Shown here: piece after piece, positions 15,785 to 38,870 of the stretch
Numbering within the stretch: position 1 is the stretch's first letter
How the letters are laid out: each line of letters opens with the position of its first letter
Assembly (NCBI GenBank): GCA_045541175.1
Contig: JAZQIP010000022.1
Coordinates: forward strand, 14,129 to 78,128
Origin: Acutalibacteraceae bacterium
GTDB taxonomy: Bacteria > Bacillota > Clostridia > Oscillospirales > Acutalibacteraceae
Direction: 5' to 3'
DNA: 64,000 bases
Notes under the pieces: generated by a model
What the model saw: only the letters and a program-made list of their open reading frames with translations
Told to the model about the DNA's origin: nothing
Database searches by the model: none
Position numbers and translations under genes: made by a program

Positions 15785-17102
15785 TATATATCTTCCCGAT
15801 ATTATCGGCGGGGGTTATGGCAAGTTCTGGAAGGACAAGAGCCGTTATAGGGTTTTAAAGGGCGGCAAGGGTAGTAAAAAGAGTACAACAACAGCCTTGA
15901 ATTACATTTACCGTCTAATGAAATATCCTCAGAGTAATTTACTTGTAGTGAGAGCGGTTATGAATACCCACCGTGATAGTACTTTTGCACAGCTTAAATG
16001 GGCTCAGGAAAAGCTAGGTGTATCTCACTTATGGCACAATACGGTATCGCCTATGGAAATGACATACTTGCCTACCGGACAAAAGATATTGTTCAGAGGC
16101 TTTGATGATGTTTTAAAGCTCGCATCAACAACCGTCTCAAAAGGATATTTATGCTGGGTTTGGATAGAAGAGGCCTATGAAATTGAAAGCGAAGCAGATT
16201 TCGAAAAACTTGACTTTTCTGTTCCAAGAAGCAAATTACCGGAACCGCTGTTTAACCAAACAACATTGACATTCAATCCCTGGAGCGAAACACATTGGCT
16301 TAAAGCAAGATTTTTTGATAAGGAATCGTCTTTGGTTTCAACATATTCGACTAACTACCTCTGCAACGAGCATTTAACACCCGAATATCATACAGCTATG
16401 CTCGAGCTTAAAGAAAGAAATTACCGCCGATATGCTGTTACAGGTCTTGGTGAATGGGGTGTTGCAGAAGGTCTTGTATTTGAAAATTGGGAAGTTCTTG
16501 ATTTTGAGGTTGATAAACTAGGCGCTGAGGATGAAACCAAATGGCAGTTTAAGCATTTCTTCGGGCTTGATTATGGTTACACGAATGACCCTACAGCTTT
16601 TATAGCCTTTGCGGCGAATCCTATTACAAAAGAGCTTTACATATACGACGAACATTATGAGCACAAAATGCTTAATTCTGATATTGCCGCTATGATAAAG
16701 CGCAAAGGTTTTGCCAAGGAGCGAATCCGCGCCGATGCTGCAGAACCGAAATCTAATGATGATTTAAGGCGGTTGGGTATCGGTAGGATAATAGCCTCGG
16801 TAAAAGGCAGGGATAGCATAATTAACGGTATTTCTAAGCTTCAGGAATATAAGATTTATGTTCTGCCGCGGTGTGAAAATGTTATATCAGAGCTTTCAAG
16901 TTACTGTTGGAAAAAGGATAAGCAGACTGATAAGCCTTTGAATGAACCTGAGGACAATAATAATCATTTATGCGATGCTTTGAGATATGCCTTTGAGGAT
17001 GTAAAGTTCTTTCATCCTGAGGACCCGAAGATTAGAAAGAGGATACCTGAAACGGCACGATACAGCATCACACAAGAAGATTTTAAGGAAGGATGGGAAT
17101 GA
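15777..17102 (+). CDS. terL: Terminase large subunit (PBSX-like family)
   Basis: Walker A VLKGGKGSKKST, Walker B-like LCWVWIEEAYE, and a C-terminal RNase-H-like nuclease with FGLDYGYTNDPTAF...ADAAEP.... Confidence 0.9.
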   Translation: MSNIYLPDIIGGGYGKFWKDKSRYRVLKGGKGSKKSTTTALNYIYRLMKYPQSNLLVVRAVMNTHRDSTFAQLKWAQEKLGVSHLWHNTVSPMEMTYLPTGQKILFRGFDDVLKLASTTVSKGYLCWVWIEEAYEIESEADFEKLDFSVPRSKLPEPLFNQTTLTFNPWSETHWLKARFFDKESSLVSTYSTNYLCNEHLTPEYHTAMLELKERNYRRYAVTGLGEWGVAEGLVFENWEVLDFEVDKLGAEDETKWQFKHFFGLDYGYTNDPTAFIAFAANPITKELYIYDEHYEHKMLNSDIAAMIKRKGFAKERIRADAAEPKSNDDLRRLGIGRIIASVKGRDSIINGISKLQEYKIYVLPRCENVISELSSYCWKKDKQTDKPLNEPEDNNNHLCDALRYAFEDVKFFHPEDPKIRKRIPETARYSITQEDFKEGWE

Positions 17103-18192: not shown

Positions 18193-19092
18193 ATGTCACT
18201 TAACACACTTGAAAATGCTCAAAAATATACGAGCGCACTTGATAAGGTAATCGTTCAGAAGGCGGTTACAGGCTTTATGGTCGATAACGGACTTAAGGCA
18301 CAGTTTATGGGAGCGGATACTGTTAAAATTCCCTCTATGGATTTTGTTGGTCTTGCAGATTATGATCGTGATGAAGGCTTCAACAAGGGCGGAATCACGG
18401 TTTCTCGCGATTCATACATCTTAACACAGGACAGAGGCAGACAGCTTCAGATAGATGCTGTTGATATGGATGAGACCGGTGTTGCCAACCTTTCGGGTTC
18501 GGTTCTCGGAGAGTTTGTTCGTACAAAGGTTGTTCCGGAAATGGATGCTTATGTACTTTCTAAGCTCTACGGAGTTGCCAGCACTCAGAATCATATCAAA
18601 ACATACAATGAGGCTACTGTTATCGCAGACCTTCTTAAGGTGTTCAACTCAGTTCAGGATGCGGCAGGTTATAACGATACCGAGCTTGTAGCCTTTGTTG
18701 ACCCTGAGCTTTACGGTCTTTTACAGACTACCAATGAAATTACCCGTCAGATAGTTGTTTCTGATTTTAAGCAGGGTGACCTTAATTTCAAAGTTAAAAC
18801 TCTTAACGGTGTTTCGCTTATTCCTGTATCATCTGCACGTATGAAATCTGCATACGAGTATCCTGAGGATTCAAATGGCGGCTTTACACCGGCGGCAGAT
18901 GCTAAGGATGTTCGCGCAATCATTCTTCCTAAGAGTGCTTGTCATGTAGTTAAGAAGCACGAAACCCTTCGCATCTTTGAGCCTTCGCAGAACAAGGATG
19001 CAGATGCTTATGTATTTAATTATCGTCTGCACTATGATGCTTTTGTTAAGAAGAGCGAGATTAATACTATTTATGCTATTGCTACAGCGTAA
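18193..19092 (+). CDS. Major capsid protein (candidate)
   Basis: 299 aa with strong RBS AAAGGAG. Sits after the scaffold and before a terminator. The composition is typical of a highly expressed structural protein. The family was not identified by eye. Confidence 0.7.
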   Translation: MSLNTLENAQKYTSALDKVIVQKAVTGFMVDNGLKAQFMGADTVKIPSMDFVGLADYDRDEGFNKGGITVSRDSYILTQDRGRQLQIDAVDMDETGVANLSGSVLGEFVRTKVVPEMDAYVLSKLYGVASTQNHIKTYNEATVIADLLKVFNSVQDAAGYNDTELVAFVDPELYGLLQTTNEITRQIVVSDFKQGDLNFKVKTLNGVSLIPVSSARMKSAYEYPEDSNGGFTPAADAKDVRAIILPKSACHVVKKHETLRIFEPSQNKDADAYVFNYRLHYDAFVKKSEINTIYAIATA

Positions 19093-20743: not shown

Positions 20744-21133
20744 ATGAGCGAAAGTGTAATAATCAAAGGCAAAGCCAGATTCAAGCCGCGAAGTGATACA
20801 GCGGCTAATTGGAAAACTAAAAACCCTGTTTTGCTTGCAGGAGAGCCTGGGGTCGTTATTGACGGTACCGAAACCGAAAAAATAAAGTTTGGTGACGGTG
20901 TTACACCTTGGAATGACCTTGGTTGGTGGAAAGGACCAAAAGGTGTAAAAGGCGATATAGGTCCTCAAGGTATCCAAGGCGAGAAAGGTGATAAGGGCGA
21001 TACAGGTGAACCGGGTAAAGATGCAGTAACAGACCAAACCTACAACCCGACAAGCGAAAATGCTCAAAGCGGTAAAGCGGTTGCAGAGGCGGTTACAATT
21101 GCTATAGGCAACGCATTAGAGGAGGAGTATTAA
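20744..21133 (+). CDS. Fibre protein with a HylP/Mtd-type N-terminal motif and a collagen-like triple-helix segment
   Basis: RSDTAANWKTKNPVLLAGEPGVVIDGTETEKIKFGDGVTPWNDLGW, then 9 G-X-Y triplets GPKGVKGDIGPQGIQGEKGDKGDTGEPG (nt 20933-21022). Confidence 0.7.
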   Translation: MSESVIIKGKARFKPRSDTAANWKTKNPVLLAGEPGVVIDGTETEKIKFGDGVTPWNDLGWWKGPKGVKGDIGPQGIQGEKGDKGDTGEPGKDAVTDQTYNPTSENAQSGKAVAEAVTIAIGNALEEEY

Positions 21134-22509: not shown

Positions 22510-23076
22510 ATGAACAGTCCATATAACGGAAAATTCAGAGTATCACAGCAATTCAAAGGTTCTAGTCACGATGGGCTCGACCTTGTAGGAATAAGCAGTA
22601 AGGAAATCCATAGCACAGTAAACGGCAAGGTTGAGCGCGCAGGCTGGGAAAATCCTTTAAACCGTAAGCAGGGTTTTGGCAGATATGTCCGCATAAAGAA
22701 AAGCGGCAGTAGTGACCGCTATTATTTCGGGCATTTATCTGCTGTAAAAGTTAAAGTAGGACAAACTGTCAAGGTAGGCGATGTTATCGGTATTGAGGGC
22801 AGTACTGGAAGGTCTACAGGCTCGCATTGTCATTACTGCATCCGCGGTAACGCTTCCAAGTCAAAGATAAGGGACGTTTGTGAAATTAGCGGTATTCCCA
22901 ACAAAATCGGTACATATACCGACGAACCCAAGAAGACTACCAAAAAGTCCAACGAGGCAATTGCTAAAGAGGTAATAGCTGGTAAATGGGGTAACGGCTC
23001 TACAAGAAAAAAGAAGCTCACTGCCGCCGGTTACGATTATAAGGCGATTCAGAAGATTGTAAATAAGCTTGTATAA
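22510..23076 (+). CDS. Endolysin: M23 peptidase domain plus C-terminal CW_7 (Cpl-7-type) cell-wall-binding repeat
   Basis: M23 motifs HDGLDL...GHLS...GSTGRSTGSHCHY. The C-terminus AIAKEVIAGKWGNGSTRKKKLTAAGYDYKAIQKIVNKL matches the CW_7 repeat consensus. Confidence 0.85.
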   Translation: MNSPYNGKFRVSQQFKGSSHDGLDLVGISSKEIHSTVNGKVERAGWENPLNRKQGFGRYVRIKKSGSSDRYYFGHLSAVKVKVGQTVKVGDVIGIEGSTGRSTGSHCHYCIRGNASKSKIRDVCEISGIPNKIGTYTDEPKKTTKKSNEAIAKEVIAGKWGNGSTRKKKLTAAGYDYKAIQKIVNKLV

Positions 23077-23370: not shown

Positions 23371-23402
23371 GTAAGCATAAACGATAAAAAGGAGCTTTGA
23401 TA

Positions 23403-25247
23403 ATGAACGATTTAAAAATCAAAACAGAGCCTAAATCTATTTTTGGAGAGTTTAAAACAGGCGATTCATATAAGCAAGGTTTAGGTAAACGCGGTATCAC
23501 TGAACAAGGAAAGGTGAATGAGCGTTTCTTCATTGGTGACCAATGGCACGGTGCGAAATGCGGAAACAATCGACCGCTTGTCCGCCGAAACATTATAAAG
23601 CGAATTGGCGAATTTAAGATGTCGTCTATAACCGCGGCACCGTTGGCGGTAAATTATACAGCTGACGGTATTCCTGATATTGGAATTGAGGAAGAAAAGC
23701 AGGCTATGACCGATAACCTTAATAAAGGTATTGCTCCCCAGGGCGAGGTAAGCAATGCGGAAATAGCAACAGTTATGCAGAGCCTTTCAGAATATTTCAA
23801 GATAACGGGAGAGCGCTTAAAGCTTGATACCCTTAAAGAACAGGCGCTTAGAAACTGCTATATCAGCGGTACAGGACTTTTATATACATATTGGGACAGC
23901 AAGATTGAAACAGGTCTTTATGCTGATACGGCTAAGCAGGTGCCAATAAACGGTGATATAAACTGCGAGGTATTAGAGGTTGAAAATGTTGTTTTCGGTG
24001 AGCCGAACAATGACAATATACAAAGCCAGCCTTATATCATAATAACCCGCAGAAGGCATATAGGAGAGGTTATAAGAGAGGCAAAAAGAAACCGCATACC
24101 TGCAGAGCAAATAGCGGATATTAAACCTGATAATGTGGACTATTATCAAAATTCGGGTGAGCAGGGTGAAAGCGAGCCTACAGACAGCAAGCGTGTTACC
24201 ACTATGACAAAGTTTTATAAAAAGTGGTCTGAAGATGGCAACGATTTCAAAGTTATGTGTACCGAGGTTACAGAAAAGGTTGTTATAAGAAAGCCTTTTG
24301 ATATTGGTATAAAGCATTACCCTATAGCTCTGATGCCTTGGGAGCGGAGAAGGTCCTGCATTTACGGTGAAAGCGAAATAACTCATTTAGTCCCAAATCA
24401 GATTGCTATAAACCGTTGCCTTACCGCCGCAGTTTGGGGAATGATTTCAACAGGTATGCCGATTATGGTTGTAAACGGTGATATTGTAACCGACAGGATA
24501 ACCAACGAACCGGGACAAATTATAAAGTGCTATGGCAGTAATGAGGATATGAAGGGGGCTATAAGCTATGTTCAGCCGCCAATATTCCAGTCACAGTATT
24601 TCAACAGCGTTAACGAAATGGCTACGAGCACACTTAACGATTCGGGCGCAAACGATGCGGCGCTTGGAAACCTTAGACCTGATAATGCCTCAGCAATTAT
24701 ACAAATGCGAGAGGCAGCAATGCAGCCTATGCAGATGTATATGAACCGCTTTTATGATTTTATCGAACAGCTTGCGCGTATATGGGCAGATTTTTGGGTG
24801 AATCTTTACGGTAAAAGAATGCTAAGGGCCGTTACCAAAGAGGGTACCAATTATATTCCCTTTGATGGAGAAAGATATAAGAACCTTGTTATTACAGCGA
24901 GAATTGATGTAGGAGCGGCTACGCTTTGGAGTGAGGCTGTAGTTATTTCTACCCTTGATAACCTCTTAGAAAGAAAAATGATAACCTTTGAGCAGTATCT
25001 AGACAGATTGCCTGCGGGAATTATTCCTGATGTTACAGGGCTTAAAGAGGATTTACAGATACAGTCACAGCAGGCCGAAACACAAGCTGCCCTTTCGGAT
25101 GAGGCAATTTTGCGAGATTTTGCACAGCAACAGCCCGAGCTTTATAAACAGTATGAGAGAATGCCTGCATCTGAGCAAATGGCGGTTATGGCTAAGATAA
25201 AAGGAGCCTATAACGGCGGTACTGCAGAGGGAGGAGCAATACAATGA
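23403..25247 (+). CDS. Portal protein
   Basis: 614 aa from the ATG 8 nt after AAAGGAG. N-terminal NERFFIGDQWHG portal motif with size and charge pattern typical of portals. Confidence 0.8.
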   Translation: MNDLKIKTEPKSIFGEFKTGDSYKQGLGKRGITEQGKVNERFFIGDQWHGAKCGNNRPLVRRNIIKRIGEFKMSSITAAPLAVNYTADGIPDIGIEEEKQAMTDNLNKGIAPQGEVSNAEIATVMQSLSEYFKITGERLKLDTLKEQALRNCYISGTGLLYTYWDSKIETGLYADTAKQVPINGDINCEVLEVENVVFGEPNNDNIQSQPYIIITRRRHIGEVIREAKRNRIPAEQIADIKPDNVDYYQNSGEQGESEPTDSKRVTTMTKFYKKWSEDGNDFKVMCTEVTEKVVIRKPFDIGIKHYPIALMPWERRRSCIYGESEITHLVPNQIAINRCLTAAVWGMISTGMPIMVVNGDIVTDRITNEPGQIIKCYGSNEDMKGAISYVQPPIFQSQYFNSVNEMATSTLNDSGANDAALGNLRPDNASAIIQMREAAMQPMQMYMNRFYDFIEQLARIWADFWVNLYGKRMLRAVTKEGTNYIPFDGERYKNLVITARIDVGAATLWSEAVVISTLDNLLERKMITFEQYLDRLPAGIIPDVTGLKEDLQIQSQQAETQAALSDEAILRDFAQQQPELYKQYERMPASEQMAVMAKIKGAYNGGTAEGGAIQ

Positions 25248-25612
25248 CAGGACAAGATATATTGAAAACCGCAACTGAGCTACTCGGTTATACCAACGCA
25301 AATAATAATTTACAGTTAACTTCGAGAATAACAGGCAAGTCGGTCGCAATACTTAACCTGATATACAGTGACCTTTGGAGGATTTGCAATGAGGGTGAAT
25401 TCATACCGATAAATACCGTTCAGGATGATATTTTTCTTCCCGAACGGGCGCTTAATGATGTTATGCCTTATGGGTTGGCTATGATGATAGCTCAAAGCGA
25501 GAGTGACGGTGACAGTCAGCAGCTATATTCTGTGCTTTATAACCGCAAGCGCGCGGGACTTTCAAGAAAAGAAAATATACAGGATGTACTACCAAGGAGC
25601 TATGATATATGA
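25244..25612 (+). CDS. Head-tail connector/adaptor candidate
   Basis: 122 aa, ATGA-coupled to the portal stop. Assigned by position only. Confidence 0.4.
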   Translation: MTGQDILKTATELLGYTNANNNLQLTSRITGKSVAILNLIYSDLWRICNEGEFIPINTVQDDIFLPERALNDVMPYGLAMMIAQSESDGDSQQLYSVLYNRKRAGLSRKENIQDVLPRSYDI

Positions 25613-27768
25613 AATTTCCGGCAATGAATAAACAGAGCAGACGCGGGGTTAATATCCCTGAGTTTGCGGGCGGACTGAACCTACGAGATAACCCCGTTCA
25701 GGTAAATGACAATCAATTGACCGACCTTAAAAATATGTGGTATAAGGATGGAACTTTGAGGACAAGACCAGGGATATATTCTTGTGACGATATGAATGTA
25801 CAAATTGGCAATCCTAACGGTAAGCAGAATATCGATAAGCGCCAATTTCTTGAAATTGAATACGAAAAAGATTCTCAAAGGTACATACTTAGCGTAACAA
25901 AGAGAGAAACTTCTGGGGTAACAAATTTGATTTTTTGTTGGCAAGGGGAAGATAAAATCATAGTATTGCCAGGAATAACTATAACTGCAACAGGCATCAA
26001 TTATTTTGTTGTTAGACATAATGATCTTCTTTATTGTTTTGTTAGCAACCAAAAAATATATAGGTTAGTACCCAATTCGACGAGTGGATGGATAGAATTA
26101 CCCGAAAGAGAATATTATGTGCCGTTAGTTGCTACTAATTGTCTAGCTTTAGAAGGATTTAATAAGAAAAGTGAAGAGATAGTGTCAAGTGGCATAATGC
26201 TTGAAGGATATAATCTTTTAAGTGATTATTATAAAATTAGCTATAATTCCTTTAATAATGATTTAGCTCCAGTAGAGACCGGAACTCACCCAATGAAATA
26301 TCATTTACTATCATCTATTTATAATGCTGATTATAAGGGTAAATACGTGACTGTAGAATATACAAAAAATGGGAATACTGCAATGCATAAATTAAAATTG
26401 GATGGTAGTTTTGAAGCCAAAGAGTCGGCTTGTAATGATATAGATGGTATGAAAATACGGATACGCTTTAATTGGCTCTGTTTTGAGGATGAAAACGATA
26501 ACATTGTATATATAGAAGAGGGTATGGAAAACGATATTGTTATAACAGCGCCGTATATTCCAAAGAACCGCGATAAAGAGCTTAAAAAAATCTTTAATAT
26601 GACCCGTTCTGTATGGTTCGGCGGCACTAATTCGGGGTTTAAAAACGGAACAAGGCTGTTTCTATGCGGTAATACAATAGAAAGTGAAAAAGCTTTGGTA
26701 TGTTGGTCCGGGCTGAATAATCCGCTATATTTTCCTGAAAACTCATATTTTTATGTTGGTGATACTAATGAAGCTGTGACCTGCTTCGGCAAGCAGTCGG
26801 ATATGCTGGTTGTTTTTAAAAATAATGAAACCTGGTATACGCAGTATAGGCAAAATACGGATATTACTGCCGCAGACCTTATAAATCAAACTGTTGTTGA
26901 CTTACAAGCAAGTTCAGTTTATTTTCCGATTACACAGGTAAATCCCAATATTGGCTGCGCATATCCTGATACGGTTTGCCTTTGCAGAAACAAGCTGGTT
27001 TTTGTAGGCTCTGATAAAAAGGTTTATACCCTCGTTTCTAACAGTCAATATAATGAGCGTAACATATTCTGCGTTTCTGAAATGGTAGACAAAGCCTTGA
27101 AAGACGAAGGCATCTCAAGTGCTTGCGATTGGAACGGTTATTATTGCCTAAGCTGTGGTAAAAAAATTTACTTGATGGACTATAACAGCTATGGATATCA
27201 ATATATAACAAGCTTTTCAAAAACAGAGGATGCCAATAAGAGGATACCTTGGTATTGTTGGGAATTGCCGATATCTTCCGGTTTGATATGTGCTATAGGA
27301 AATTCGATAATCATACCTGATTATTTTGCAGCAGATTCTGCCGTAAATTGTTCTATCCTTGGTTATATGCTAAATGTAGATAATGGTGAGAATGATTCTA
27401 TTTTGCAAGAAAAAGCTAACGGCGCTCTTGAATTTACTGCACAAAAAATCAAAAGCAGTCTTCAAACAAAGTTTTTTGATTTTGGTGCGCCAAATAACTA
27501 TAAAAATATTGATTCTGTTGGCTTGTCATTGGGTTATAACGGTGGTAACGAGATAACCGCTACCTTGCTGACAGATGGCGGTGAGGAGCAAATAGGACTT
27601 GTTTTAGAGGATGAGGCAGAAGAGCGCTCTGCAGGGTTTACCAAGAGCAGAATATTATATCCGGCAATACGCTCTGTGATAAGGCTTGGGGTTAAGCTTG
27701 AATGTGAGGGAAATATGATTGTAGATGGTATGACACTTGAATATCGAATGACAGGCAGAGCCAGATGA
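25609..27768 (+). CDS. Large virion structural protein (tail/nozzle candidate)
   Basis: 719 aa, coupled to the upstream gene. N-terminal IPEFAGGLNLRDNPVQVNDNQLTDLKNMWYKDGTLRTRPG resembles conserved N-termini of podovirus tail-tube-type proteins. Not verified. Confidence 0.45.
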   Translation: MKFPAMNKQSRRGVNIPEFAGGLNLRDNPVQVNDNQLTDLKNMWYKDGTLRTRPGIYSCDDMNVQIGNPNGKQNIDKRQFLEIEYEKDSQRYILSVTKRETSGVTNLIFCWQGEDKIIVLPGITITATGINYFVVRHNDLLYCFVSNQKIYRLVPNSTSGWIELPEREYYVPLVATNCLALEGFNKKSEEIVSSGIMLEGYNLLSDYYKISYNSFNNDLAPVETGTHPMKYHLLSSIYNADYKGKYVTVEYTKNGNTAMHKLKLDGSFEAKESACNDIDGMKIRIRFNWLCFEDENDNIVYIEEGMENDIVITAPYIPKNRDKELKKIFNMTRSVWFGGTNSGFKNGTRLFLCGNTIESEKALVCWSGLNNPLYFPENSYFYVGDTNEAVTCFGKQSDMLVVFKNNETWYTQYRQNTDITAADLINQTVVDLQASSVYFPITQVNPNIGCAYPDTVCLCRNKLVFVGSDKKVYTLVSNSQYNERNIFCVSEMVDKALKDEGISSACDWNGYYCLSCGKKIYLMDYNSYGYQYITSFSKTEDANKRIPWYCWELPISSGLICAIGNSIIIPDYFAADSAVNCSILGYMLNVDNGENDSILQEKANGALEFTAQKIKSSLQTKFFDFGAPNNYKNIDSVGLSLGYNGGNEITATLLTDGGEEQIGLVLEDEAEERSAGFTKSRILYPAIRSVIRLGVKLECEGNMIVDGMTLEYRMTGRAR

Positions 27769-27783
27769 AAGGGGTAAATTAAA

Positions 27784-28800
27784 ATGGCAAATTACACTTA
27801 TAATTCTATAAGAAAGGGCTATGACGATGACAAAGAGCTCAATAAGAAATTAGACGAAAAAATCAAAGCCAATAATACGATATACGATACTAATGCGCAG
27901 ACTATTAGAAATACTTATAATCAACAAATTGAGGATACCGAGGATGATTATGAGGATGCGCACAGAGAAAATGCAGTTCAGCAAAAGGTAAATGAGCATT
28001 ATATTGCCGAGGAAATGGCGAATATGGGACTAACCGATTCAGGACTTAACCGCACTCAGATTACAGCAAATCAGTTATCCTATGCCAATAACAAAGCAAA
28101 GCTCGACCGACAGAGGCAAAGCTTTGTAGACGGTCTTACTCTTGAGATGACAAATCGCATTGCAGAAAATGAAAACAGCAGATTAAGTTCTGAGCAGAGT
28201 ATCAGGGACGCGGATTCACAGTACCGCGACAGCTTGGCTACAAGTGAATATAACACAAGGGTCGAGCAGGATGCGGCAAAGTATAAGGCCGATATGGATT
28301 ATAAGACCAAGATAGAAAAAGCAAATATTGACGCTCAAACAGAAATAACAAAGGCTGGGATTAAGGCGGCCGGAAACGGACCTAAAGGTATAATTTCCGG
28401 AAATAATAAATTATTAAGTCGAAATTATACAGGACTTTTGGAAGAAAGCGGTGTATCGGTAATCTTCAATGATGACGAAACAACAACATATATTGATAGA
28501 AAAACCGGATACAAGTCTACATTTAATAGCAATGTTAATCCATATACAAATACTGTTAATCCTGATACAGAATATGGTGTATTTACTTCTACAGGTTATC
28601 AACCTACTCATAAAAACGGTGTGAAACTTTCTAAGGCAGATACTACATATTTACCTAGTTTAGGAAGAAGTCAAAATGTATTCAAAGGGGAATATATTGA
28701 AAACGGGAAAACTGTTACAAAATATTGGTTATGGGATGATAGTATCAATGACTATCAGCAGGTCTATAAGTCTAATGGTAAATGGGTAATTAAAAATTGA
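27784..28800 (+). CDS. Virion-associated coiled-coil protein (internal/ejection protein candidate)
   Basis: 338 aa. The N-terminal two-thirds is Q/E/D/N-rich and helical. Sits between the tail-like gene and the giant protein. Confidence 0.4.
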   Translation: MANYTYNSIRKGYDDDKELNKKLDEKIKANNTIYDTNAQTIRNTYNQQIEDTEDDYEDAHRENAVQQKVNEHYIAEEMANMGLTDSGLNRTQITANQLSYANNKAKLDRQRQSFVDGLTLEMTNRIAENENSRLSSEQSIRDADSQYRDSLATSEYNTRVEQDAAKYKADMDYKTKIEKANIDAQTEITKAGIKAAGNGPKGIISGNNKLLSRNYTGLLEESGVSVIFNDDETTTYIDRKTGYKSTFNSNVNPYTNTVNPDTEYGVFTSTGYQPTHKNGVKLSKADTTYLPSLGRSQNVFKGEYIENGKTVTKYWLWDDSINDYQQVYKSNGKWVIKN

Positions 28801-28816: not shown

Positions 28817-31800
28817 ATGGATAATAAAAGCATTTTATTTCAACCGGGACAGGTTTTAGGAGCAGTATCTAGCACAAACACAACGGTTAAGCAGAGTAGT
28901 CTGTTTCAGCCCGGTCAAGTTTTAGGAGAAGTATCAGCAGAAGAACAATTAAAATCACAACTCAACAGCAAAATAGTTCAGCCGATGGAATTGGTAAAGA
29001 ACCCTACCTCAGCGAATAAGAAACTTGCGGATGCGGTAAATCTAAAAACCACTATACCTTCGGCGAGTTATGATGAGGGTGTTGTTAAAGAACTTAAATT
29101 AAAAAATGAAATGGATGTTGCCGAAAAGGAATATAAAAATGCTCAGGATACGTTTAATATTAATCCTGTAATGAAGCAGTTGGAAAGTTTGGGTGTAAAT
29201 CATAAAAATGTAGGACCGTACGAAACTGCTTATGAGAATAAGAAAAAGGAATACAAGACATATGAAAAGGCAAGATATTATGCTGCAATGCCTAACGGTG
29301 AGGTGAAAACCACAAATCCTGAAAACAAACGCTATTTTTCTTTGGATTCGTCAATAGATTGGGAATATGAATACATAAACGATATCGGCGGTATACGCAA
29401 TACAATTCAGGCGCAGTCTGTTCGTTCCGGTGGCGGAAATGCTTACGAACTTTACGATTATATGACAGAAAGAGAAGTAGGTATTTATAATTATATATAT
29501 GCTGAAAATGGAAAAAAACAAGCGAAAGAATTTTTGGATTTTATTGAAGATGATTTAGAGACAAGGCTTTCTACAAAGAATGCCAAATCTGCTCAAAAGT
29601 TTGCGGATGAACATCCTTATGTGGCAGCAGCTCTTTCGATTCCTGCAAATGTATTTGCTGCGGGCGAACAAGTATCAAATATATTGGAATATACTTTTAC
29701 TGGCGACCTTAATCGAAACAATATGGCAGACACAGCTAATGTATATAGAAGTTATTTGCCTGAAAAGGTTAATTGGGAAATTGGAAATTGGGATGCTTTC
29801 GATTTTGTGTATAATACAACAATGTCGGGTATTGATTCGTTTGTTGTAGCTCCCGCAGGAACTGTTGGTGCGGTTGCTTTAGGTCTGTCAGCGGCGGCGA
29901 GTACAACCAACGATATACTCGATAGAGGCGGAAATAATGTGCAGGCTTTTTGGGGCGGTATAGCAGCAGGAACTTTTGAGGGATTTTTTGAAAAGTTTTC
30001 CTTAAGTCAACTTGATTCTATGCAAGAGGGAATGGTAAAAGGCTTCAAGGATTTTGCGAAGAATGTGGGAAAATCTATGCTTGTTAATGCCTCTGAGGAA
30101 ACAGCTACCGAAATTGCAAATATTTTGTATGATTATGTAGCTAACGGAGGTATTTCTCAGTATGCTTTGCTTGTTAAGGAATATACCGATAATGGTGATG
30201 ACGAAAAAACCGCAAAGAAAAAAGCAGCCCAAAAATTAGGACTGCAAATACTTGAAGCTGGGGCATCAGGTGCTCTTATGGGTTTGGGTTTTGCTTCTGT
30301 TGGTTCTGCTTCGGCTTATAGAAATTATAAAAAAGACACCTCTTTTGCAAAACAGGTTGATGAAGTTATAAATGGTACTCATAATCCGAGATATGATTTA
30401 TATGTTTCGGAAACACCTAAAATATTTACTGATTTAGGCTTTACTGATTCTCCACTATTAATGAGAAATGGTAAAGTAAATGAAATTCTAAAAAAACATT
30501 CTGAAATGTCAGTTGATACTATTAAACAGATTCCGCAGGCTATTCAAAATCCAATACTTATTTTAAAATCAAAAACAAATCCAACACAAAGCGTAGTGGC
30601 TATTACCGATGTTATAACAGAAAAGGGCAATATGATAGTTCCGGTATGGATAAATCAAGAGGGAAACTATATAGATGTTGATTTTGGAATAGATGTTGTT
30701 ACGGATACTAATTTTGTTGCTTCGGCTTATGGAAGAAATGTAAAAAGTCTTTTAGAATATGCGAATGAAAATAACGGATTTCTATATCAAAGTCAGAATA
30801 TAGAAAAAGTCAGACAACTTATAGCAAGAAATGGGCTGCAATTGCCCACACCACTAAAGTTATCTGACTCTGACATTAATATATCACAAAATGATAACGA
30901 TGTCAATAATATTATATCCACCGAACCCTCAAATAATTCCCAAAATCCCGATTCGGGAGCGGGAGATGTTGCACGTGTAATCGGTGATAGGGTATCTATT
31001 TTAAGAAATAATACCGACCGCAGGCATACTACTTTAAAAGAACAACAGTATATTCAAAAAATATGTGATGCTTTAGGTGTAGAAGTTGTATTTGAGGATA
31101 TGGCTGAATATATGAAAGCAAACGGCTTTGATACAAGTAGCGGGATTATAGAGGGATATATTGATAAAAGCAATGTTATACATATCGGTTGGACTGTAAG
31201 GAATCCTGTACAATTTGTTTTGAAGCACGAGCTTACACATTTCTTAGAGAATAATAAAGCGAAATACAACGATTTTGCAAATTCAATTATGGATAACGAA
31301 TTATTTAAGGAATGGGTAAAATCTAAGGGATATGCATCTACAAGTGAATATAATGCTACTATAGTGCAACATTATTCTCAACTGGATAAAAAATTCGGCG
31401 AACACGAAGCTAATTTAGAAATGGTTGCTAATTTTGTTGGTGAAAATTTATTCGGTAACGAAAACGAGCTCAAAAGACTTTTAGAAAGTCTTAATCCTAA
31501 TCAACGGTCGAAATTTGTTCAATTCATTCACGACTTTCTTGCTTTCCTAAAAGAAAAACTCGGCGGACAAGCAGAGGTTTCCGCGGAGATAAAAGTGCTT
31601 GAAAACAATTTTATTAAGTTACTTAAAGAGGTATCATCAGAGCAAAAAAACACCGCCGAGAATAGCGGTGAATATGTATATAGTTTTTCTGCGGAAAGAC
31701 AAAGAGAGTCAGACACCCCACGGACTTTACATGCCGTAGTGAACGAAAGGGAAAACCCTAACGCCAATGTCGAACTCTCTAACAGTAGAGTAGCACAAAA

Positions 31801-34800
31801 GTCACCTACTGTCAAGAACAATTCTATGCAGGAAAGTGAAAATTATTCCTCGAACAACGATAAATTCAGCTTTGCACCTGTGGATGATAAGTCACTAGTT
31901 GCCAAAGCTGAGGATATGGAGAGTAACAATGCAAGCCGAAAAGAGATATGGCAAAAGTTAGGTATTATAAGAGATGCATCGGGTGAGTGGATTTATGAAA
32001 TATCTGACGATGAAATGAAATTTTCTCCTTTGGGTAAAGTGAAATATCTGGAAAGTCCTGAATATAAGGAATATCTTGAGCTTAGAAAATTAAAAAGGCG
32101 AACCAAAGAAAAGACTAAAAGATTTTTTGATTTGGGAATGAAGTACGGTACAGGCGCTTTGCCTCACGGCAAGCTGAAAGATTTCCTGATTCATGATAAA
32201 CTCTTTGAAAAATATCCAAATTTGAAAGAAACAAATTTCGAATTTGGAATGTTGGGAAAAGGAACTTTTGGCAACTATAATCCCGATACAAATACTATAA
32301 CTTTGAACGCTGATTTTTTAGAGGAATCTACAGCAAACGATAAGAGCGAAAGGGATTTCGAGGATTTTGCTAACGAGTTGAAAATGAAACAAACGCTTAT
32401 GCATGAAGTCCAACACGCTATGCAGGAATATGATAATCGAGAACGTGGCTCTAATGAATTGTATTGGCAACATCGCGCTATGATGGGTGATATTCCGCTA
32501 AGTTCAAACAGCAAACCGCTTACTCCTCGAAAAGCATACGAAAATACGGCCGGTGAAATTGAAGCTAAACAAACAGAAAACAGAACTTTTTTGAACGAAG
32601 AAAGCCGTAGAGATAAAATGCCGAATCTCGGTTGGGATAAAGCTGTGTTTACCAGCAAATCTTATCAATTAGCAAACAAATCTTCTGAGGCTATCGATGC
32701 GGAATATAGCTCAGCCGTTGAGAAAGGTGATACACGGGCAATTCAGAACATGGTTGATAATGCCGCTATGTCATCAGGGTATACAGAAAGATTGTATCAT
32801 CAAACAAATGCTGATTTCACAGAGTTTAATACTGAAAATCAAAAAGCAGGCAAATATGATACAGAATTGCCTACAGGTACATTTTTGAAACCTTCCGATG
32901 AAGATATTGGACTTTCGGGTAAAAAGCAAATGGAACTTTATGCGCAGATTAAAAAGCCTCTGCAATTTAAGGACAGAGATGATGCACGACAGTTCTGGAG
33001 CGAAAATATAGACGGATATGCCGAGGCAATAAAGGTTGTTAGTGATATAGATTCAGAGTACCGTCAAAAGTATAGCGAAGCTGAGGGTGATGTCAGAAGG
33101 TATATGATAAATTGGCGACATTCTAATCCCGATGCATCGAGGCAGGATATTTATAGTGATACCGAGTTCCAACGCTTACTTGGCAGACAACAGCAAGTGC
33201 TTGAAGAATGGGAAAACAAATCCAACGAAGCAAGTCTTGAGGCGAAGCGGCTCATCGATGATTTTATTGCTAAAAACGATTATGACGGTGTTATTATTGA
33301 GAATGACCAGGACGGAGATAACATAAGTACAAAGTCATACATCGTATTCAATTCTAATCAGCTTAAAGATGCTGCTCCTGTCACTTATGATGATGCAGGC
33401 AATGTTATTCCGTTATCAGCAAGGTTTGACACTGAACAAGGGGATATAAGATATTCTTTCACAGAATATACAAGTGCTGAAAGTTTGCTTGAACAGTATG
33501 AAAACGGCAAGATTACAAGGCAAGAGTATTTAGATATGATTAAAAAAGAAAAGCCGCTAAATCCTGTAGAAATAGCAAATTTAAAAGAGGAAGATGCTAA
33601 CACAACTCCAACGTTGAAAAAGCGTAACGGTACAAATGTCGGGGATAAACAAAGTGAGACCTATGAAAGTCTACTTGGCTCAAGTATCTTTGACGAGAGA
33701 TTTAAAGAGGAGATAGCCGACGATACATTCATAAAGAATTATCAGTCGATTACCAACAAGGAAACTCTTGCAAAAGCGGCTAAGGAGCTTGATGAGGGTG
33801 GTCTCAGTTATGTTCTAAAATGGAATAACACAGACCCCGAACACGCAAGCCTAATTGATATAGCGGTGGGCTTCATTCTTATGGATAGATATCAGCGTGT
33901 TGGTGATTACGAAAGTGCTGCTTCTGTAGCAGAAAAGGTAAGAATGTTTGGTACTTCAAGCGGTCAACAGGTGCAGATTTTCTCAATCCTCGGAAGACTT
34001 GACCCGAATTCAATGCAGGCTTATGCGCAGCAGACATTGGACAAAGCTTTTGAAAAATTGGCAGATATTAAAACAAAACAATGGATTGATAAAAACCAGT
34101 CTAAATTTAAGCTCACAGAAGAAGATATTGAATTTATTCGTCGTCACACTTTGCAAGCTGCTTTGTTTGATGATAATACTAGACCTAAGGCGATAGCTCT
34201 TGGTAAAATATGTGCAAGGATTCAGGATAAGATACCGCCTGAGGCAGGACAATCCATCAGAGCTTTGCAAAGGTCCAATATGTTATTGAATTTAAAAACA
34301 ATACTCCGCAACATAAATGGTAATGCGGGTATGACACCGCTATTTATTGCATCTGACTTTTTTGGAACTCTCATTGATAAAGGATTGTCTAAAAAGACAG
34401 AGATACGAACTACGGGTATTTATGGTCACCCATTTACAAAGAACGGTAGAGAGCGTTTGGCGAAAAATATGGAAAGTTTCGGGAAAGGTGTATATGAATC
34501 TTGGGATGATTTCAAAAGGGGGATACGTACAAAACAAGAAGATTTAAACCGTTTTGAACTTAATTCTTCATCGGGTAAGAATTTTAACGAGCATCACACT
34601 GGGAAGTTGGCTAAGCAATTTGATGCTATTTCAAAATTCCTTAATAAGATGGATAACTTCACCTCTTTCTGTTTAGAAGTAGGAGACAGACCTTTCTTTG
34701 AAATGTGGATGACAAATTCATTAAATAACCAATTGAGGCTTAATAAGTTAGAAATACCTACACCTGAAATGTTGGAAGTTGCCAAGCAGGAAGCATTACA

Positions 34801-36190
34801 AAGAACTTGGCAGGATGATAGCAGGTTTACAAGGTCAGCGAGCAAAATCAAATCGGCACTTAATGATATGGTGCATATACCAGGAACCTCTTACGGTCTT
34901 GGGGATGGGGTTATGAAGTTTATAAAAACTCCTTCCAATATTGCCAGAGCGATTGGAAGTTTTTCGCCGGCAGGTTTTGTATCCGCCGGAGTGAACGCAA
35001 AAAAACTAAAGAATGCTATAGATAAAGATAAATTTACACCTCAACTACAAAAAGAATATGTAAGAAGTCTGAGCAATGCTATAACAGGAACTTTGATTTA
35101 TGTTCTTGTTGCGGTAGGAGCAGGTTTAGGAGTTGTAAAGTTATCAGGAGACGATGACGACGATAAGGATGCGTCGAATTATGAAAAGTACATTATGGGT
35201 ATTCCTCCGTATTCAATAGAATTTTTCGGAGTGAACATAACTTATGATTGGATGCAACCTTTCGGTTCGGTTTTGGCCATTGTTGCAGATTTTATGGAAA
35301 GTCAAGAAGAAAATCCTGACGGTGATGTAGCAAATGCAATATTAGAGGCTATAAAGGCAGGGGGAAAGGCATTTACAAAACAATCTTTTTTACAAAGCTT
35401 ATACGATGTGTTCTCGTCAGAGGATATAGTAGAAGCGTTAACATCTGTAGCTTTGGCAGAGCCGGCAGCGTTCGTTCCTCAACGTTGGTCTCAAATGGCA
35501 AGTTTTCTTGATGAGTACAGTAGGACATCTTATGATAATACAAATAGTTTTAAATCAGCCATAAATAAGGTTATTGCTAAAATCCCCGGACTGAGAACTA
35601 CGCTACCTAAAAGGGTTAATGTTTTAGGCGAAGATGTTAAAAACACACAGTATCTTGATGCTTGGGAGGCTTTTGCATCACCATGGAACACTTACCCTAA
35701 AAGTTCAAGCGAGGTTATAGGTGAAATTTATAGCCTTTATAAATCAACAGGGGAAAATTCAGTTATTCCAAGAACTGCACCGAATTATTTTACAGTTAAA
35801 GGAACTAAAGTTGCATTTACTCCGGAAGAAAAGGCGGAGTTCCAACGTAATATTGGAAAGCGTAGCGCTGAAATGTTGGGACAACTTTTTGACAGTAAAG
35901 AATACACCAACCTTTCTGATGAAGAAAAGGTTACTGTAATAAGTAAAATATATCAATTTGCCTATGATAAAGCAAAATCGGAGCGCAAATATGATTATGA
36001 CACCTTGTCGGCTATGGTCGGCGAAAAGAAAAACGGTGACCCGATACTTACAAAGTCTGTTTACGGTAGGTTATCAGAAGAGGATAAAGAGGAACTCGCA
36101 CAGGAATATTTCTTGTCTAAAACAGAAATGAGGTATATAAACAATTATGATAGGTTGATACAGTATTACATTAAGCAGGCTAAGGAATAA
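28817..36190 (+). CDS. Giant (2457 aa) multi-domain polyvalent-type virion protein with two zincin HExxH motifs, an ART-PolyVal-like domain and a C-terminal TM segment
   Basis: HELTH at nt 31226-31240. HEVQH at 32402-32416, followed by NTAGEIEAKQTENR. LYHQTNADFTEF (His at 32798) ... YIVFNSNQLKDAAPVTYDDAGNVIPLSARFDTEQGDIRYS. A KKHSEMSVDTIKQIPQAIQNPILILKS segment. TM helix ITGTLIYVLVAVGAGLGVV. N-terminal duplicated LFQPGQVLG(A/E)VS. Confidence 0.85.
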   Translation: MDNKSILFQPGQVLGAVSSTNTTVKQSSLFQPGQVLGEVSAEEQLKSQLNSKIVQPMELVKNPTSANKKLADAVNLKTTIPSASYDEGVVKELKLKNEMDVAEKEYKNAQDTFNINPVMKQLESLGVNHKNVGPYETAYENKKKEYKTYEKARYYAAMPNGEVKTTNPENKRYFSLDSSIDWEYEYINDIGGIRNTIQAQSVRSGGGNAYELYDYMTEREVGIYNYIYAENGKKQAKEFLDFIEDDLETRLSTKNAKSAQKFADEHPYVAAALSIPANVFAAGEQVSNILEYTFTGDLNRNNMADTANVYRSYLPEKVNWEIGNWDAFDFVYNTTMSGIDSFVVAPAGTVGAVALGLSAAASTTNDILDRGGNNVQAFWGGIAAGTFEGFFEKFSLSQLDSMQEGMVKGFKDFAKNVGKSMLVNASEETATEIANILYDYVANGGISQYALLVKEYTDNGDDEKTAKKKAAQKLGLQILEAGASGALMGLGFASVGSASAYRNYKKDTSFAKQVDEVINGTHNPRYDLYVSETPKIFTDLGFTDSPLLMRNGKVNEILKKHSEMSVDTIKQIPQAIQNPILILKSKTNPTQSVVAITDVITEKGNMIVPVWINQEGNYIDVDFGIDVVTDTNFVASAYGRNVKSLLEYANENNGFLYQSQNIEKVRQLIARNGLQLPTPLKLSDSDINISQNDNDVNNIISTEPSNNSQNPDSGAGDVARVIGDRVSILRNNTDRRHTTLKEQQYIQKICDALGVEVVFEDMAEYMKANGFDTSSGIIEGYIDKSNVIHIGWTVRNPVQFVLKHELTHFLENNKAKYNDFANSIMDNELFKEWVKSKGYASTSEYNATIVQHYSQLDKKFGEHEANLEMVANFVGENLFGNENELKRLLESLNPNQRSKFVQFIHDFLAFLKEKLGGQAEVSAEIKVLENNFIKLLKEVSSEQKNTAENSGEYVYSFSAERQRESDTPRTLHAVVNERENPNANVELSNSRVAQKSPTVKNNSMQESENYSSNNDKFSFAPVDDKSLVAKAEDMESNNASRKEIWQKLGIIRDASGEWIYEISDDEMKFSPLGKVKYLESPEYKEYLELRKLKRRTKEKTKRFFDLGMKYGTGALPHGKLKDFLIHDKLFEKYPNLKETNFEFGMLGKGTFGNYNPDTNTITLNADFLEESTANDKSERDFEDFANELKMKQTLMHEVQHAMQEYDNRERGSNELYWQHRAMMGDIPLSSNSKPLTPRKAYENTAGEIEAKQTENRTFLNEESRRDKMPNLGWDKAVFTSKSYQLANKSSEAIDAEYSSAVEKGDTRAIQNMVDNAAMSSGYTERLYHQTNADFTEFNTENQKAGKYDTELPTGTFLKPSDEDIGLSGKKQMELYAQIKKPLQFKDRDDARQFWSENIDGYAEAIKVVSDIDSEYRQKYSEAEGDVRRYMINWRHSNPDASRQDIYSDTEFQRLLGRQQQVLEEWENKSNEASLEAKRLIDDFIAKNDYDGVIIENDQDGDNISTKSYIVFNSNQLKDAAPVTYDDAGNVIPLSARFDTEQGDIRYSFTEYTSAESLLEQYENGKITRQEYLDMIKKEKPLNPVEIANLKEEDANTTPTLKKRNGTNVGDKQSETYESLLGSSIFDERFKEEIADDTFIKNYQSITNKETLAKAAKELDEGGLSYVLKWNNTDPEHASLIDIAVGFILMDRYQRVGDYESAASVAEKVRMFGTSSGQQVQIFSILGRLDPNSMQAYAQQTLDKAFEKLADIKTKQWIDKNQSKFKLTEEDIEFIRRHTLQAALFDDNTRPKAIALGKICARIQDKIPPEAGQSIRALQRSNMLLNLKTILRNINGNAGMTPLFIASDFFGTLIDKGLSKKTEIRTTGIYGHPFTKNGRERLAKNMESFGKGVYESWDDFKRGIRTKQEDLNRFELNSSSGKNFNEHHTGKLAKQFDAISKFLNKMDNFTSFCLEVGDRPFFEMWMTNSLNNQLRLNKLEIPTPEMLEVAKQEALQRTWQDDSRFTRSASKIKSALNDMVHIPGTSYGLGDGVMKFIKTPSNIARAIGSFSPAGFVSAGVNAKKLKNAIDKDKFTPQLQKEYVRSLSNAITGTLIYVLVAVGAGLGVVKLSGDDDDDKDASNYEKYIMGIPPYSIEFFGVNITYDWMQPFGSVLAIVADFMESQEENPDGDVANAILEAIKAGGKAFTKQSFLQSLYDVFSSEDIVEALTSVALAEPAAFVPQRWSQMASFLDEYSRTSYDNTNSFKSAINKVIAKIPGLRTTLPKRVNVLGEDVKNTQYLDAWEAFASPWNTYPKSSSEVIGEIYSLYKSTGENSVIPRTAPNYFTVKGTKVAFTPEEKAEFQRNIGKRSAEMLGQLFDSKEYTNLSDEEKVTVISKIYQFAYDKAKSERKYDYDTLSAMVGEKKNGDPILTKSVYGRLSEEDKEELAQEYFLSKTEMRYINNYDRLIQYYIKQAKE

Positions 36191-36222
36191 AAAAAGAAAA
36201 GGGACCGCGTTATTGCGGTCCC
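36191..36222 (-). terminator. Intrinsic terminator for the minus-strand 158-aa gene; the hairpin also closes the late operon
   Basis: GGGACCGC (36201-36208), loop GTTATT, GCGGTCCC (36215-22). The U-run exists only on the minus strand (plus-strand AAAAAAGAAAA at 36190-36200). The hairpin overlaps the last codons of 36210-36686. Confidence 0.65.
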
Positions 36223-38522: not shown

Positions 38523-38870
38523 TGGTGGAGATGGCGGGAATCGAACCCGCGTCCGAAAATCTATCCGTACCGGCGTCTCCGAGCGCAGACACCTGTTTAA
38601 ATTCCCTTATACCGCCGTCAAGTGTCCGACTGCGATATTCGGTAGCTCCCAATGCGTGACAGCCGCAGGAGCAAGCAACTGTTCACGTTCACCACTAAAA
38701 TGACACCCGAGCCTGAGCCGTGGTACTCTCAGGTCAGATGAGCCGCCTTAATTAGGCAGCTAAAGCAACTTTATTGTTGTTAGTTAATTTTTTATGCGGC
38801 TTTTAAAGCGGTTCCGCACCGCTGCTCGCTTCCGGTATTTCAAAATCCCCGTCGAAACCTTTACATCCCC
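38523..38870 (-). ncRNA. ssrA: tmRNA (SsrA), 348 nt
   Basis: 5' GGGGATGTAAAGGTTTCGACGGGG and 3' GGACGCGGGTTCGATTCCCGCCATCTCCACCA. The acceptor stem has the G3-U pair required for Ala charging. The tag reading frame ends ...AAC AAC AAT AAA GTT GCT TTA GCT GCC TAA (..NNNKVALAA). smpB is adjacent. Confidence 0.95.

Follow-up and report, generated by a model that had tools for sequence, protein, structure and literature searches.

The giant gene and its product

The window under study is a 64,000-nucleotide stretch of DNA from an Acutalibacteraceae bacterium (GenBank assembly GCA_045541175.1, contig JAZQIP010000022.1, positions 14,129 to 78,128 of the forward strand), in which a prophage carries a giant gene at the end of its late operon. 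The features of this gene and of its surroundings are listed in Table 1. The reading frame is open over 2457 codons, a GGAG/GAGG ribosome-binding site is located 6-12 nt ahead of its ATG, and the product is an acidic protein (pI 5.2) of 2457 amino acid residues (aa) and 277 kDa. All the motifs that had been listed for this protein in a preliminary description, made from the sequence alone, were located, and the coordinates given there were correct: LFQPGQVLG is present twice near the N-terminus, the Gly/Ala-rich hydrophobic region contains 22% G+A and is most hydrophobic at aa 339-360, the His-containing segment of MuF type (KKHSEMS...ILKS) lies at aa 559-585, HELTH (aa 804, nt 31226) and HEVQH (aa 1196, nt 32402) form the sole HExxH pair, the segment resembling an ADP-ribosyltransferase (ART) carries LYHQTNADFTEF at aa 1326 and ends with ...DIRYS at aa 1547, and the transmembrane-capable helix ITGTLIYVLVAVGAGLGVV shows a Kyte-Doolittle value of 2.14. 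These motifs represent more than chance occurrences because they are kept across a set of 247 giant relatives, which was assembled from 119 database proteins and 127 full open reading frames (ORFs) of fetched loci.

Table 1. Coordinates of the giant gene, its modules and neighbouring features in the window. Residue numbers are those of the giant protein; the fourth column gives the number of members carrying the module among the 247 relatives.
Feature	Position	Strand	Members (of 247)	Remarks
Large terminase	15777-17102	+
Major head protein	18193-19092	+		phrog_422
M23 peptidase with CW_7 wall-binding repeat	22510-23076	+		Amid structural genes, just before portal
Portal, P22/SU10 type	23397..25247	+		First gene of the late block of the giant gene
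Three genes between portal and giant gene	25244..28800	+		122 aa (adaptor position), 719 aa (probable nozzle, weak evidence), 338 aa
Giant gene, 2457 aa	28817..36190	+		Last gene of late operon
Twin N-terminal peptide LFQPGQVLG	28835..28927	+		aa 7-15 and 29-37
N-terminal Gly/Ala-rich hydrophobic module	29414..30376	+	189	aa 200-520; conserved frame element, no named family
MuF_C (PBECR clade, predicted RNase-like)	30479..30790	+	43	aa 555-658; Pfam PF18819; cargo slot 1
Zincin domain 1	31031..31657	+	149	aa ~739-947; HELTH 804-808, third ligand E868; commonest insert
LPD23	31898..32023	+	54	aa 1028-1069; Pfam PF18838
Zincin domain 2, SprT-like	32105..32623	+	56	aa ~1097-1269; H1126, HEVQH 1196-1200, E1247
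ART-PolyVal-type ADP-ribosyltransferase domain	32780..33457	+	58	aa 1322-1547; H1328/Y1375/D1490
Linker motif, predicted-disordered	33458..33736	+	196	aa 1548-1640; N1582 P1583 I1586 ... T1596 T1597 P1598 ... S1613
C-terminal module, predicted gp16/IVP-D-type internal virion (ejection) module, all-alpha	33737..36187	+	242	aa 1641-2457; family-defining carrier
Hydrophobic transmembrane-capable helix	35081..35137	+		aa 2089-2107, followed by acidic GDDDDDKD patch
G+C-rich hairpin, terminator-like	36201..36222	.		Between stop of giant gene and convergent accessory gene
tmRNA gene	38523-38870	-		Rfam 160 bits; missed by ARAGORN

Identity of the C-terminal module

The C-terminal part of the giant protein (aa ~1550-2400) is common to 114 of 119 relatives as estimated from BLAST coverage, and the AlphaFold (AF2) model of the module, constructed with an alignment of 45 sequences, was confidently all-alpha (predicted local distance difference test score [pLDDT] 79.1, predicted template modelling score 0.70). 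Upon Foldseek comparison of this model with the predicted viral structures of BFVD, a total of 47 matches were obtained at E <= 1e-3. The top matches were the C-terminal halves of metagenomic phage proteins that are named after MuF_C, ART-PolyVal or LPD3, and the next were proteins annotated as "internal virion protein", including those of Pelagibacter phage Eyrgjafa (E 3.8e-13) and of Synechococcus phages S-CBP2 (3.4e-11) and S-CBP3 (8.2e-11); a protein of cyanophage NATL2A-133 was also among the matches, and the internal virion proteins ranged from E 1e-13 to 1e-7.

The same class of protein was retrieved by comparison of sequence profiles. When a family profile of 33 sequences was aligned by hhalign with gp16 of the Prochlorococcus phage P-SSP7, a match of 95.6% probability was obtained (E 1.2e-8, 258 columns), covering the hydrophobic helix (P-SSP7 gp16 ~885-905) and the motif G..YSI.IG...YTYDW.QP that follows it, while nothing was detected with gp15 of P-SSP7. 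The profile was also run by unfiltered HMMER (--max) over all 68 ORFs, each at least 100 aa long, of the control regions chosen in T7, P-SSP7 and phi24B; P-SSP7 gp16 scored 24.1 bits and the other 67 control ORFs 0.5 bits or less. Scanned separately from the rest of the protein, the C-terminal pieces of 19 of the 33 family members matched the PHROGs profile phrog_6651 ("internal virion protein", profile length 1375), with E 8.7e-6 for the piece from the window; the PHROGs scan of the whole giant protein gave no match, nor did its NCBIfam scan. No meaningful match to PDB sequences came from phmmer and profile searches, whether with the whole protein or with its C-terminal or N-terminal module.

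The module is extensively alpha-helical in the AF2 model and carries a membrane-capable segment near its C-terminus, both of which are traits of the internal virion protein (IVP) class IVP-D. The assignment to the gp16 type is thus supported by four agreeing results (Foldseek, hhalign, HMMER and PHROG 6651), from which we conclude that the C-terminal ~820 aa are a predicted ejection-protein module of the gp16/IVP-D type, linked to its marine-podovirus branch. The preliminary description had left the C-terminal ~950 aa unassigned and had guessed at a component of the ejectosome; the former statement is now superseded, and the latter gains from the predicted homology to internal virion proteins of the gp16 type.

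Predicted enzyme domains of the central region

Between the N-terminal hydrophobic module and the C-terminal module, several domains known from polyvalent proteins were identified. The His-containing segment, which had been likened to those fused to MuF-type head proteins, was recognized by the Pfam scan as MuF_C (PF18819, 54.4 bits against a threshold of 27.6, E 1.5e-14), and H561 aligns with the conserved His of this family after a gap shift of one residue. MuF_C is a predicted RNase domain of the PBECR clade (Iyer et al. 2017, PMC5512222). The Phage_Mu_F head-morphogenesis domain was not found by Pfam in the giant protein, which carries MuF_C only. LPD23 also exceeded the Pfam cutoff (PF18838, 28.2 bits against 27), and its residues G1056, W1058, E1061 and D1064 are conserved among the relatives. 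The segment that had been thought to resemble ART-PolyVal (PF18760) scored 29.8 bits at aa 1322-1519, just below the cutoff of 31.2, and a precomputed PF18760.8 match is listed for the giant protein. Its H-Y-D triad on strands 1, 2 and 5 (H1328, Y1375 and D1490) is intact and kept in 85-94% of ~55 family domains; it is this triad that defines the ART-PolyVal clade (PMC5512222). As a separate observation, the MuF_C cassette ends with a near-invariant LQLP motif (aa 674-678, window 30836-30850), of which P677 is found in 100% of the aligned domains and which lies right at a recombination breakpoint between relatives (aa 683-685).

Both HExxH motifs belong to conserved domains with a downstream Glu. 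In the case of zincin 1, at least 90% of 170 aligned domains retain each of H804, E805, H808 and E868; in that of zincin 2, 84-89% of 64 domains retain H1126, H1196, E1197, H1200 and E1247. An AF2 model of aa 690-1300, constructed with an alignment of 53 homologous segments, showed two separate domains (mean pLDDT 73.5, domain cores 80-96, with the core of zincin 1 at 84-96) with a disordered linker (aa 951-1022) between them. Each domain consists of a helix, a sheet of three to four strands, the long HExxH helix and a later helix bearing the Glu ligand, in agreement with the zincin-like core described for the metallopeptidases of polyvalent proteins, in which an N-terminal helix and a three-stranded sheet are followed by the HExxH helix and the Glu-ligand helix (PMC5512222). 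In the AF2 model, therefore, both HExxH domains have zincin topology, as had been read from the motifs.

Assignment to particular peptidase families is less firm. The top real matches of the zincin-region profile to PDB sequences were those to the minigluzincin selecase, at a sub-threshold E of 0.03-0.06, and neprilysin-type peptidases were likewise retrieved below threshold. The Foldseek list for aa 690-1300 against PDB was non-significant and contained an IrrE-like regulator, anthrax lethal factor, ColG, jannalysin/selecase and ArdC; the enrichment of zincins in this list is suggestive only. The segment of one relative (P0007) that is collinear with zincin 2 and 57% identical to it was recognized by Pfam as SprT-like (E 6.5e-6). 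The Pfam model MPTase-PolyVal gave no match in the giant protein. On the whole, at least two disparate activities are predicted within one polypeptide that is encoded among the late/virion genes of a phage, as is characteristic of polyvalent proteins, a class defined in 2017 by Iyer, Burroughs, Anand, de Souza and Aravind in J Bacteriol (PMC5512222).

N-terminal module, twin peptide and linker motif

Within the N-terminal hydrophobic module, G371 and E388 are conserved among the relatives. The module gave no PDB match, Pfam scans of its members gave noise only, and hhalign of its profile against P-SSP7 gp16 and phi24B gp47 was negative.

A repeated N-terminal 9-mer, scored within aa 2-80 at a BLOSUM62 value >= 30, was detected in 53 of 188 dereplicated members; as controls, the segment aa 121-199 gave 1 of 188 and N-termini after shuffling gave 2 of 188. 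In these members the first copy begins at aa 2-8, and spacings run from 12 to 34 residues, most often 20. The twin peptide is 9-14 aa in length, its sequence is lineage-specific, and it was seen in P0002-P0120, L051, L075, L103 and other members. One hypothesis is that it acts in packaging or docking, as a signal co-evolving with a partner. The possibility that the twin motif is a recurring protease site was rejected, since only three extra copies were observed against four in shuffled sequences and no link to zincin 1 was found.

Just upstream of the C-terminal module, a second short conserved element, NP..I...L....TTP.L...G...S.F (aa ~1582-1615, window 33560-33660), lies within a stretch of pLDDT < 50 in the AF2 model. 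A specific relationship of this linker motif to zincin 1 was not supported, as it is present in 129 members with zincin 1 and 67 without.

Distribution of the family and exchange of cassettes

With the profile of the C-terminal module, 24,371 cluster representatives were retrieved at an E threshold of 1e-3 and 11,455 at one of 1e-30; the best 150 of the 24,371 were all close relatives and led to no distant family that has a name. The module is carried by at least 457 viral contigs of IMG/VR, mostly of 33-60 kb, and by 92 species-representative genomes. The titled carriers are metagenome-assembled genomes (MAGs) from the gut that belong to Acutalibacteraceae, Oscillospiraceae, Christensenellaceae and uncultured Bacilli/"Tenericutes", and a cultured carrier is Christensenella hongkongensis HKU16.

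In every fetched viral locus the module occupies the C-terminus of an ORF of 1048-2933 aa. The minimal members (~1050-1120 aa) consist of a Gly/Ala-rich hydrophobic N-terminus, a low-complexity linker and the C-terminal module, with no recognizable cargo. Across the 247 members the order is always N-terminal hydrophobic module, cargo, linker motif and C-terminal module, and close relatives differ by entire cassettes, with breakpoints at aa ~505-685 and ~957-1546. For instance, one relative (P0004/L085), of which the C-terminal module is 83% identical, is devoid of the block from LPD23 through zincin 2 to ART and carries LPD3 in the slot of MuF_C; the same slot contains PBECR3 in P0003 and a Zeta toxin domain in P0067. 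The exact domain string of the giant protein is outside the 25 commonest architectures, and each of its blocks recurs. The "particular domain string", which the preliminary description had set apart as unassigned, is thus not a one-off, being one permutation in a large cassette-shuffling family.

On one contig of an uncultured Bacilli MAG (CALVKK010000001.1), two C-terminal modules were found ~36 kb apart (L107, 40897-63275; L148, 4732-27110), suggesting two related prophages in tandem or near-tandem.

Prophage context

The giant gene is preceded on the + strand by a block that includes genes for fibre and tail proteins. The order portal, 122-aa, 719-aa, 338-aa and giant gene is kept in close relatives (synteny in L084, L085 and L097). 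The 719-aa protein (25609-27768) belongs to phrog_3287, a virion structural protein of PHROGs, and has the N-terminal motif IP.L.GGV...DNQ...N.W...G.L.TRPG; the N-terminus of its family profile can be aligned with those of T7 gp12 and P-SSP7 gp12, the top PDB match is the tail nozzle 8vbx, and all three scores are sub-significant. The protein is probably the tail nozzle. No tape-measure, tube or sheath gene was recognized in the prophage by Pfam or PHROGs scans of the window genes, and the phage is therefore considered to be short-tailed; the lack of a recognizable tape measure had already been pointed out.

Since a CI-type repressor, RecT and a helicase are encoded on the left of the late block, and the tmRNA gene, smpB and housekeeping genes are located on the right, the element is a temperate prophage beside ssrA. 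Its last late gene on the + strand is the giant gene, as first described, and this is followed by an AT-rich accessory cassette on the minus strand and then by the tmRNA gene and smpB. The prophage adjoins the 3' end of the tmRNA gene; comparison of this end with the left 30 kb of the window for an att repeat gave chance 13-mers only. Among the fibre genes, a 129-aa ORF (20744-21133) has an N-terminal motif of Mtd_N type and a short collagen repeat. The M23/CW_7 protein could serve as endolysin, or as a lysin associated with the virion for passage through the Gram-positive wall. Searches of 50,697 phage records by tblastn and megablast gave two weak matches in the MuF_C region and no related phage genome, and among public sequencing runs one run contained 8% of the words and was not usable.

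Proposed mechanism

Based on these results, the giant gene probably encodes a virion-internal ejection protein of the T7 gp16/IVP-D type that has been enlarged into a polyvalent protein. The scheme given below starts from the homologies, conserved residues, architecture and gene position described above, and what it says of packaging, topology, cleavage and targets is predicted. The carrier would be composed of the N-terminal hydrophobic module (aa 200-520) and the C-terminal ~820-aa all-alpha module with its buried helix at aa 2089-2107, and the exchangeable cargo between these frame modules would consist of the RNase-like MuF_C/PBECR domain, a gluzincin-type peptidase, LPD23, the SprT-like zincin and the H-Y-D ART. 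The protein would be synthesized late, from the transcription unit that includes the portal and the putative nozzle, and by homology with gp16 a few copies may be packaged in the capsid above the portal. Four copies would add ~1.1 MDa. This value lies within the mass of the T7 internal core.

Upon infection, the protein would be threaded in an unfolded state through the tail. T7 gp16 has two membrane-capable regions flanking a cytoplasmic hub (PMC8954989). By analogy, the hydrophobic segments may enter the single membrane of the Gram-positive cell and help to form the conduit for DNA, leaving the cargo and the gp16-like hub on the cytoplasmic side; a membrane topology with two anchors is proposed by this analogy only. 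The zincins might then cut the disordered linkers at aa ~660-740, 951-1022 and 1548-1640 and release the RNase-like, LPD23 and ART domains, following the prediction that polyvalent proteins are co-injected with DNA and self-processed by their zincins (Iyer et al. 2017, PMC5512222), and the freed ART and RNase-like domains could, during the first minutes of infection, modify proteins or RNA of the host, either for takeover or for blunting of defences.

Several observations weigh against this scheme. The giant protein is known from sequence and models, from which its packaging, ejection, cleavage and enzyme activities are deduced. The profile of the C-terminal module showed no similarity to T7 gp15, T7 gp16 (hhalign probability 0.2%), the N4 virion RNA polymerase (vRNAP) or phi24B gp47, and the link to gp16 runs through P-SSP7 gp16, which was annotated by synteny and size, and through the name of a PHROG. 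By Foldseek against PDB, the best E values for the two AF2 models were 0.22 and 0.46 and the T7 gp16 structures were not retrieved; the link to the marine-podovirus branch still has no solved structure as its anchor. The N-terminal module has no detectable homology to the first membrane region of gp16, the ART-PolyVal score falls 1.4 bits short of the Pfam gathering score, and the linker motif is not clearly a site of self-cleavage, as it is found with and without zincin 1. The negative results with T7 gp15, T7 gp16 and N4 vRNAP are in line with the known difficulty of linking IVP proteins by sequence, even P-SSP7 gp16 with T7 gp16 (PMC4819975).

Alternative explanations

The carrier may operate as described while its cargo serves ends other than counter-defence, the domains being toxins or takeover factors that halt or reprogramme the host, agents of superinfection exclusion, or polymorphic toxins acting in the MuF manner. 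This is possible, if on balance unlikely. The same slots in relatives are occupied by classic toxin folds (Zeta_toxin, NAD:arginine ART and PBECR nuclease), and host modification and superinfection control are listed as equally possible roles by Iyer et al. (PMC5512222). The sequence, however, does not separate takeover from counter-defence, and the fast turnover of cassettes among close relatives is at least equally compatible with an arms race against host defences that vary. As to the zincins, it is rather unlikely that they are effectors or cell-wall/envelope enzymes, aiding the crossing of the wall or cleaving host proteins, instead of processing the protein itself. A peptidoglycan role has been proposed for the metallopeptidase of phi24B gp47 (bioRxiv 10.64898/2026.04.10.717836), muralytic domains are carried by T7 gp16 and K1E gp35 (PMC8954989), and the frequency of zincin 1 (149 of 247) would fit a role in entry itself; yet as many as 98 of the 247 members are without zincin 1, the phage already encodes the M23 peptidase with its CW_7 repeat among the structural genes, and the zincin folds are nearer, by non-significant scores, to intracellular peptidases of the minigluzincin, SprT, ArdC and IrrE types than to known muralytic ones.

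It is improbable that the likeness of the C-terminal module to gp16 is convergent, the module being some other head-internal or decoration anchor and the cargo being packaged outside the DNA conduit. Such convergence could account for the failure to match T7 gp16, T7 gp15 or N4 vRNAP, and for the modest Foldseek TM-scores to named internal virion proteins (0.31-0.44, with large root-mean-square deviations), as alpha-helical proteins are prone to spurious matches (PMC4819975); but four methods choose the same class of protein and never gp15, portal, tail or fibre proteins, the alignment with gp16 extends to specific motifs outside the helix, for example G..YSI.IG...YTYDW.QP, and the position of the gene after the portal and the putative nozzle is that of IVP genes. 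Most improbable of all is that the product serves a long-tailed phage as tape measure or tail fibre, or that it is a polyvalent protein domesticated by the host and acting outside virions. Great length and Gly/Ala-rich hydrophobic stretches confer a superficial likeness to tape measures, and polyvalent genes captured by hosts have been noted by Iyer et al. (PMC5512222). Searches by hidden Markov models and by structure, however, revealed nothing of the plain tape-measure or tail-fibre architecture that the preliminary description had named as the outcome contrary to its proposal: families of tape-measure, tail-tube, sheath and fibre proteins in Pfam, PHROGs and NCBIfam gave no match in the giant protein, and the portal is of podovirus type. 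Moreover, the late operon around the gene looks complete, the prophage also encodes a CI-type repressor, RecT, a helicase, terminase and capsid proteins, and the module of the giant gene is present on hundreds of viral contigs of 33-60 kb.

If the giant gene product is an enlarged ejection protein, one may speculate further, though with considerable doubt, that the family represents a general chassis by which short-tailed phages of Gram-positive gut bacteria deliver effectors, in which two membrane-inserting frame modules present an exchangeable enzyme payload to the host cytoplasm and the twin peptide serves as the signal for loading into the capsid. Such a chassis would amount to a compact ejectosome made of one protein, suited to hosts with a single membrane, and would bring with it a portable tag for encapsidation.

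Relationship to known systems

The giant protein resembles the polyvalent proteins of Iyer et al. (PMC5512222) in being one giant late-gene polypeptide that combines zincins, an H-Y-D ART, MuF_C and an LPD domain beside virion genes. Unlike them, it has a predicted carrier of gp16/IVP-D type and an N-terminal hydrophobic module, is devoid of the MuF head domain, portal, DarA, helicase-methylase and vRNAP, and leaves MPTase-PolyVal unmatched; gp16 and "internal virion" are unmentioned in the passages covered of that paper. With T7 gp16 and IVP-D in general it shares a large alpha-helical structure, a gene located downstream of the portal and tail-tube genes, and a hydrophobic helix near the C-terminus, and P-SSP7 gp16 and PHROG 6651 are its detectable IVP-D relatives by profile and predicted fold. 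It differs from T7 gp16 in being about twice as large, in having no N-terminal lytic transglycosylase and no detectable similarity to T7 gp16, and in its Gram-positive host (Clostridia), and partners of gp14 and gp15 type were not recognized here. Extra enzymatic domains are known to be hosted by IVP-D, such as SLT in T7, vRNAP in N4 and a methylase in H66 gp60 (PMC8954989, PMC4819975), and domains bound for the cytoplasm, N4 vRNAP among them, are found in IVP-D homologues (Hardies et al. 2016, PMC4819975). The N4 virion RNA polymerase gp50 is likewise a giant protein that is packaged and ejected, and its C-terminal domain has been assigned to IVP-D (PMC4819975). Zincin and ART-PolyVal domains also occur in the N4-like vRNAPs that other phages encode (PMC5512222). 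The present protein, unlike gp50, contains no RNA polymerase module, and the family profile detected no similarity between the two. As in the MuF-fused polymorphic toxins of temperate phages, a swappable enzyme or toxin domain, MuF_C included, would be attached to a virion-internal protein; the Phage_Mu_F head domain of those toxins is, however, absent here, and the cargo is internal rather than C-terminal.

The concept itself is already published (Iyer et al. 2017; Hardies et al. 2016; phi24B gp47), and the points added here are incremental, namely the assignment of the C-terminal module, its abundance in Gram-positive gut phages, the anatomy of a frame with two slots, and the twin peptide. 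What they offer is an anatomical model of how abundant gut prophages may deliver enzymes into Gram-positive cells by a gp16-like carrier with two swap-in cargo slots, and a likely role for a module that matches more than 24,000 protein clusters, yet is unnamed in Pfam, NCBIfam and PHROGs (full-length protein). According to a 2022 review, ejection-protein genes are commonly found in podophages of Gram-negative hosts (PMC8954989); this generalization, that T7-type ejection proteins belong to phages of such hosts, would be qualified. For studies of defence and counter-defence, the cargo slots supply a list of candidates for early effectors (ARTs, RNases, zeta-toxin kinases and peptidases), and the twin N-terminal peptide, as a candidate packaging signal, lends itself to testing.

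Gp47 of the Stx podophage phi24B, a polyvalent protein of 2811 aa that was abundant in virion proteomics and has been proposed to be an ejection protein (bioRxiv 10.64898/2026.04.10.717836), is similar to the giant protein in size class and in being encoded by the last gene in the genome of a short-tailed temperate phage. It differs in its domains (LPD1, LPD5 and LPD38) and in its Gram-negative host, and shows no detectable homology to the frame modules described here. The phi24B gene (L164, HM208303 49148-57571) is located at the right end of the genome, and since the frame modules are unrelated, the two giant genes look convergent in both placement and architecture.

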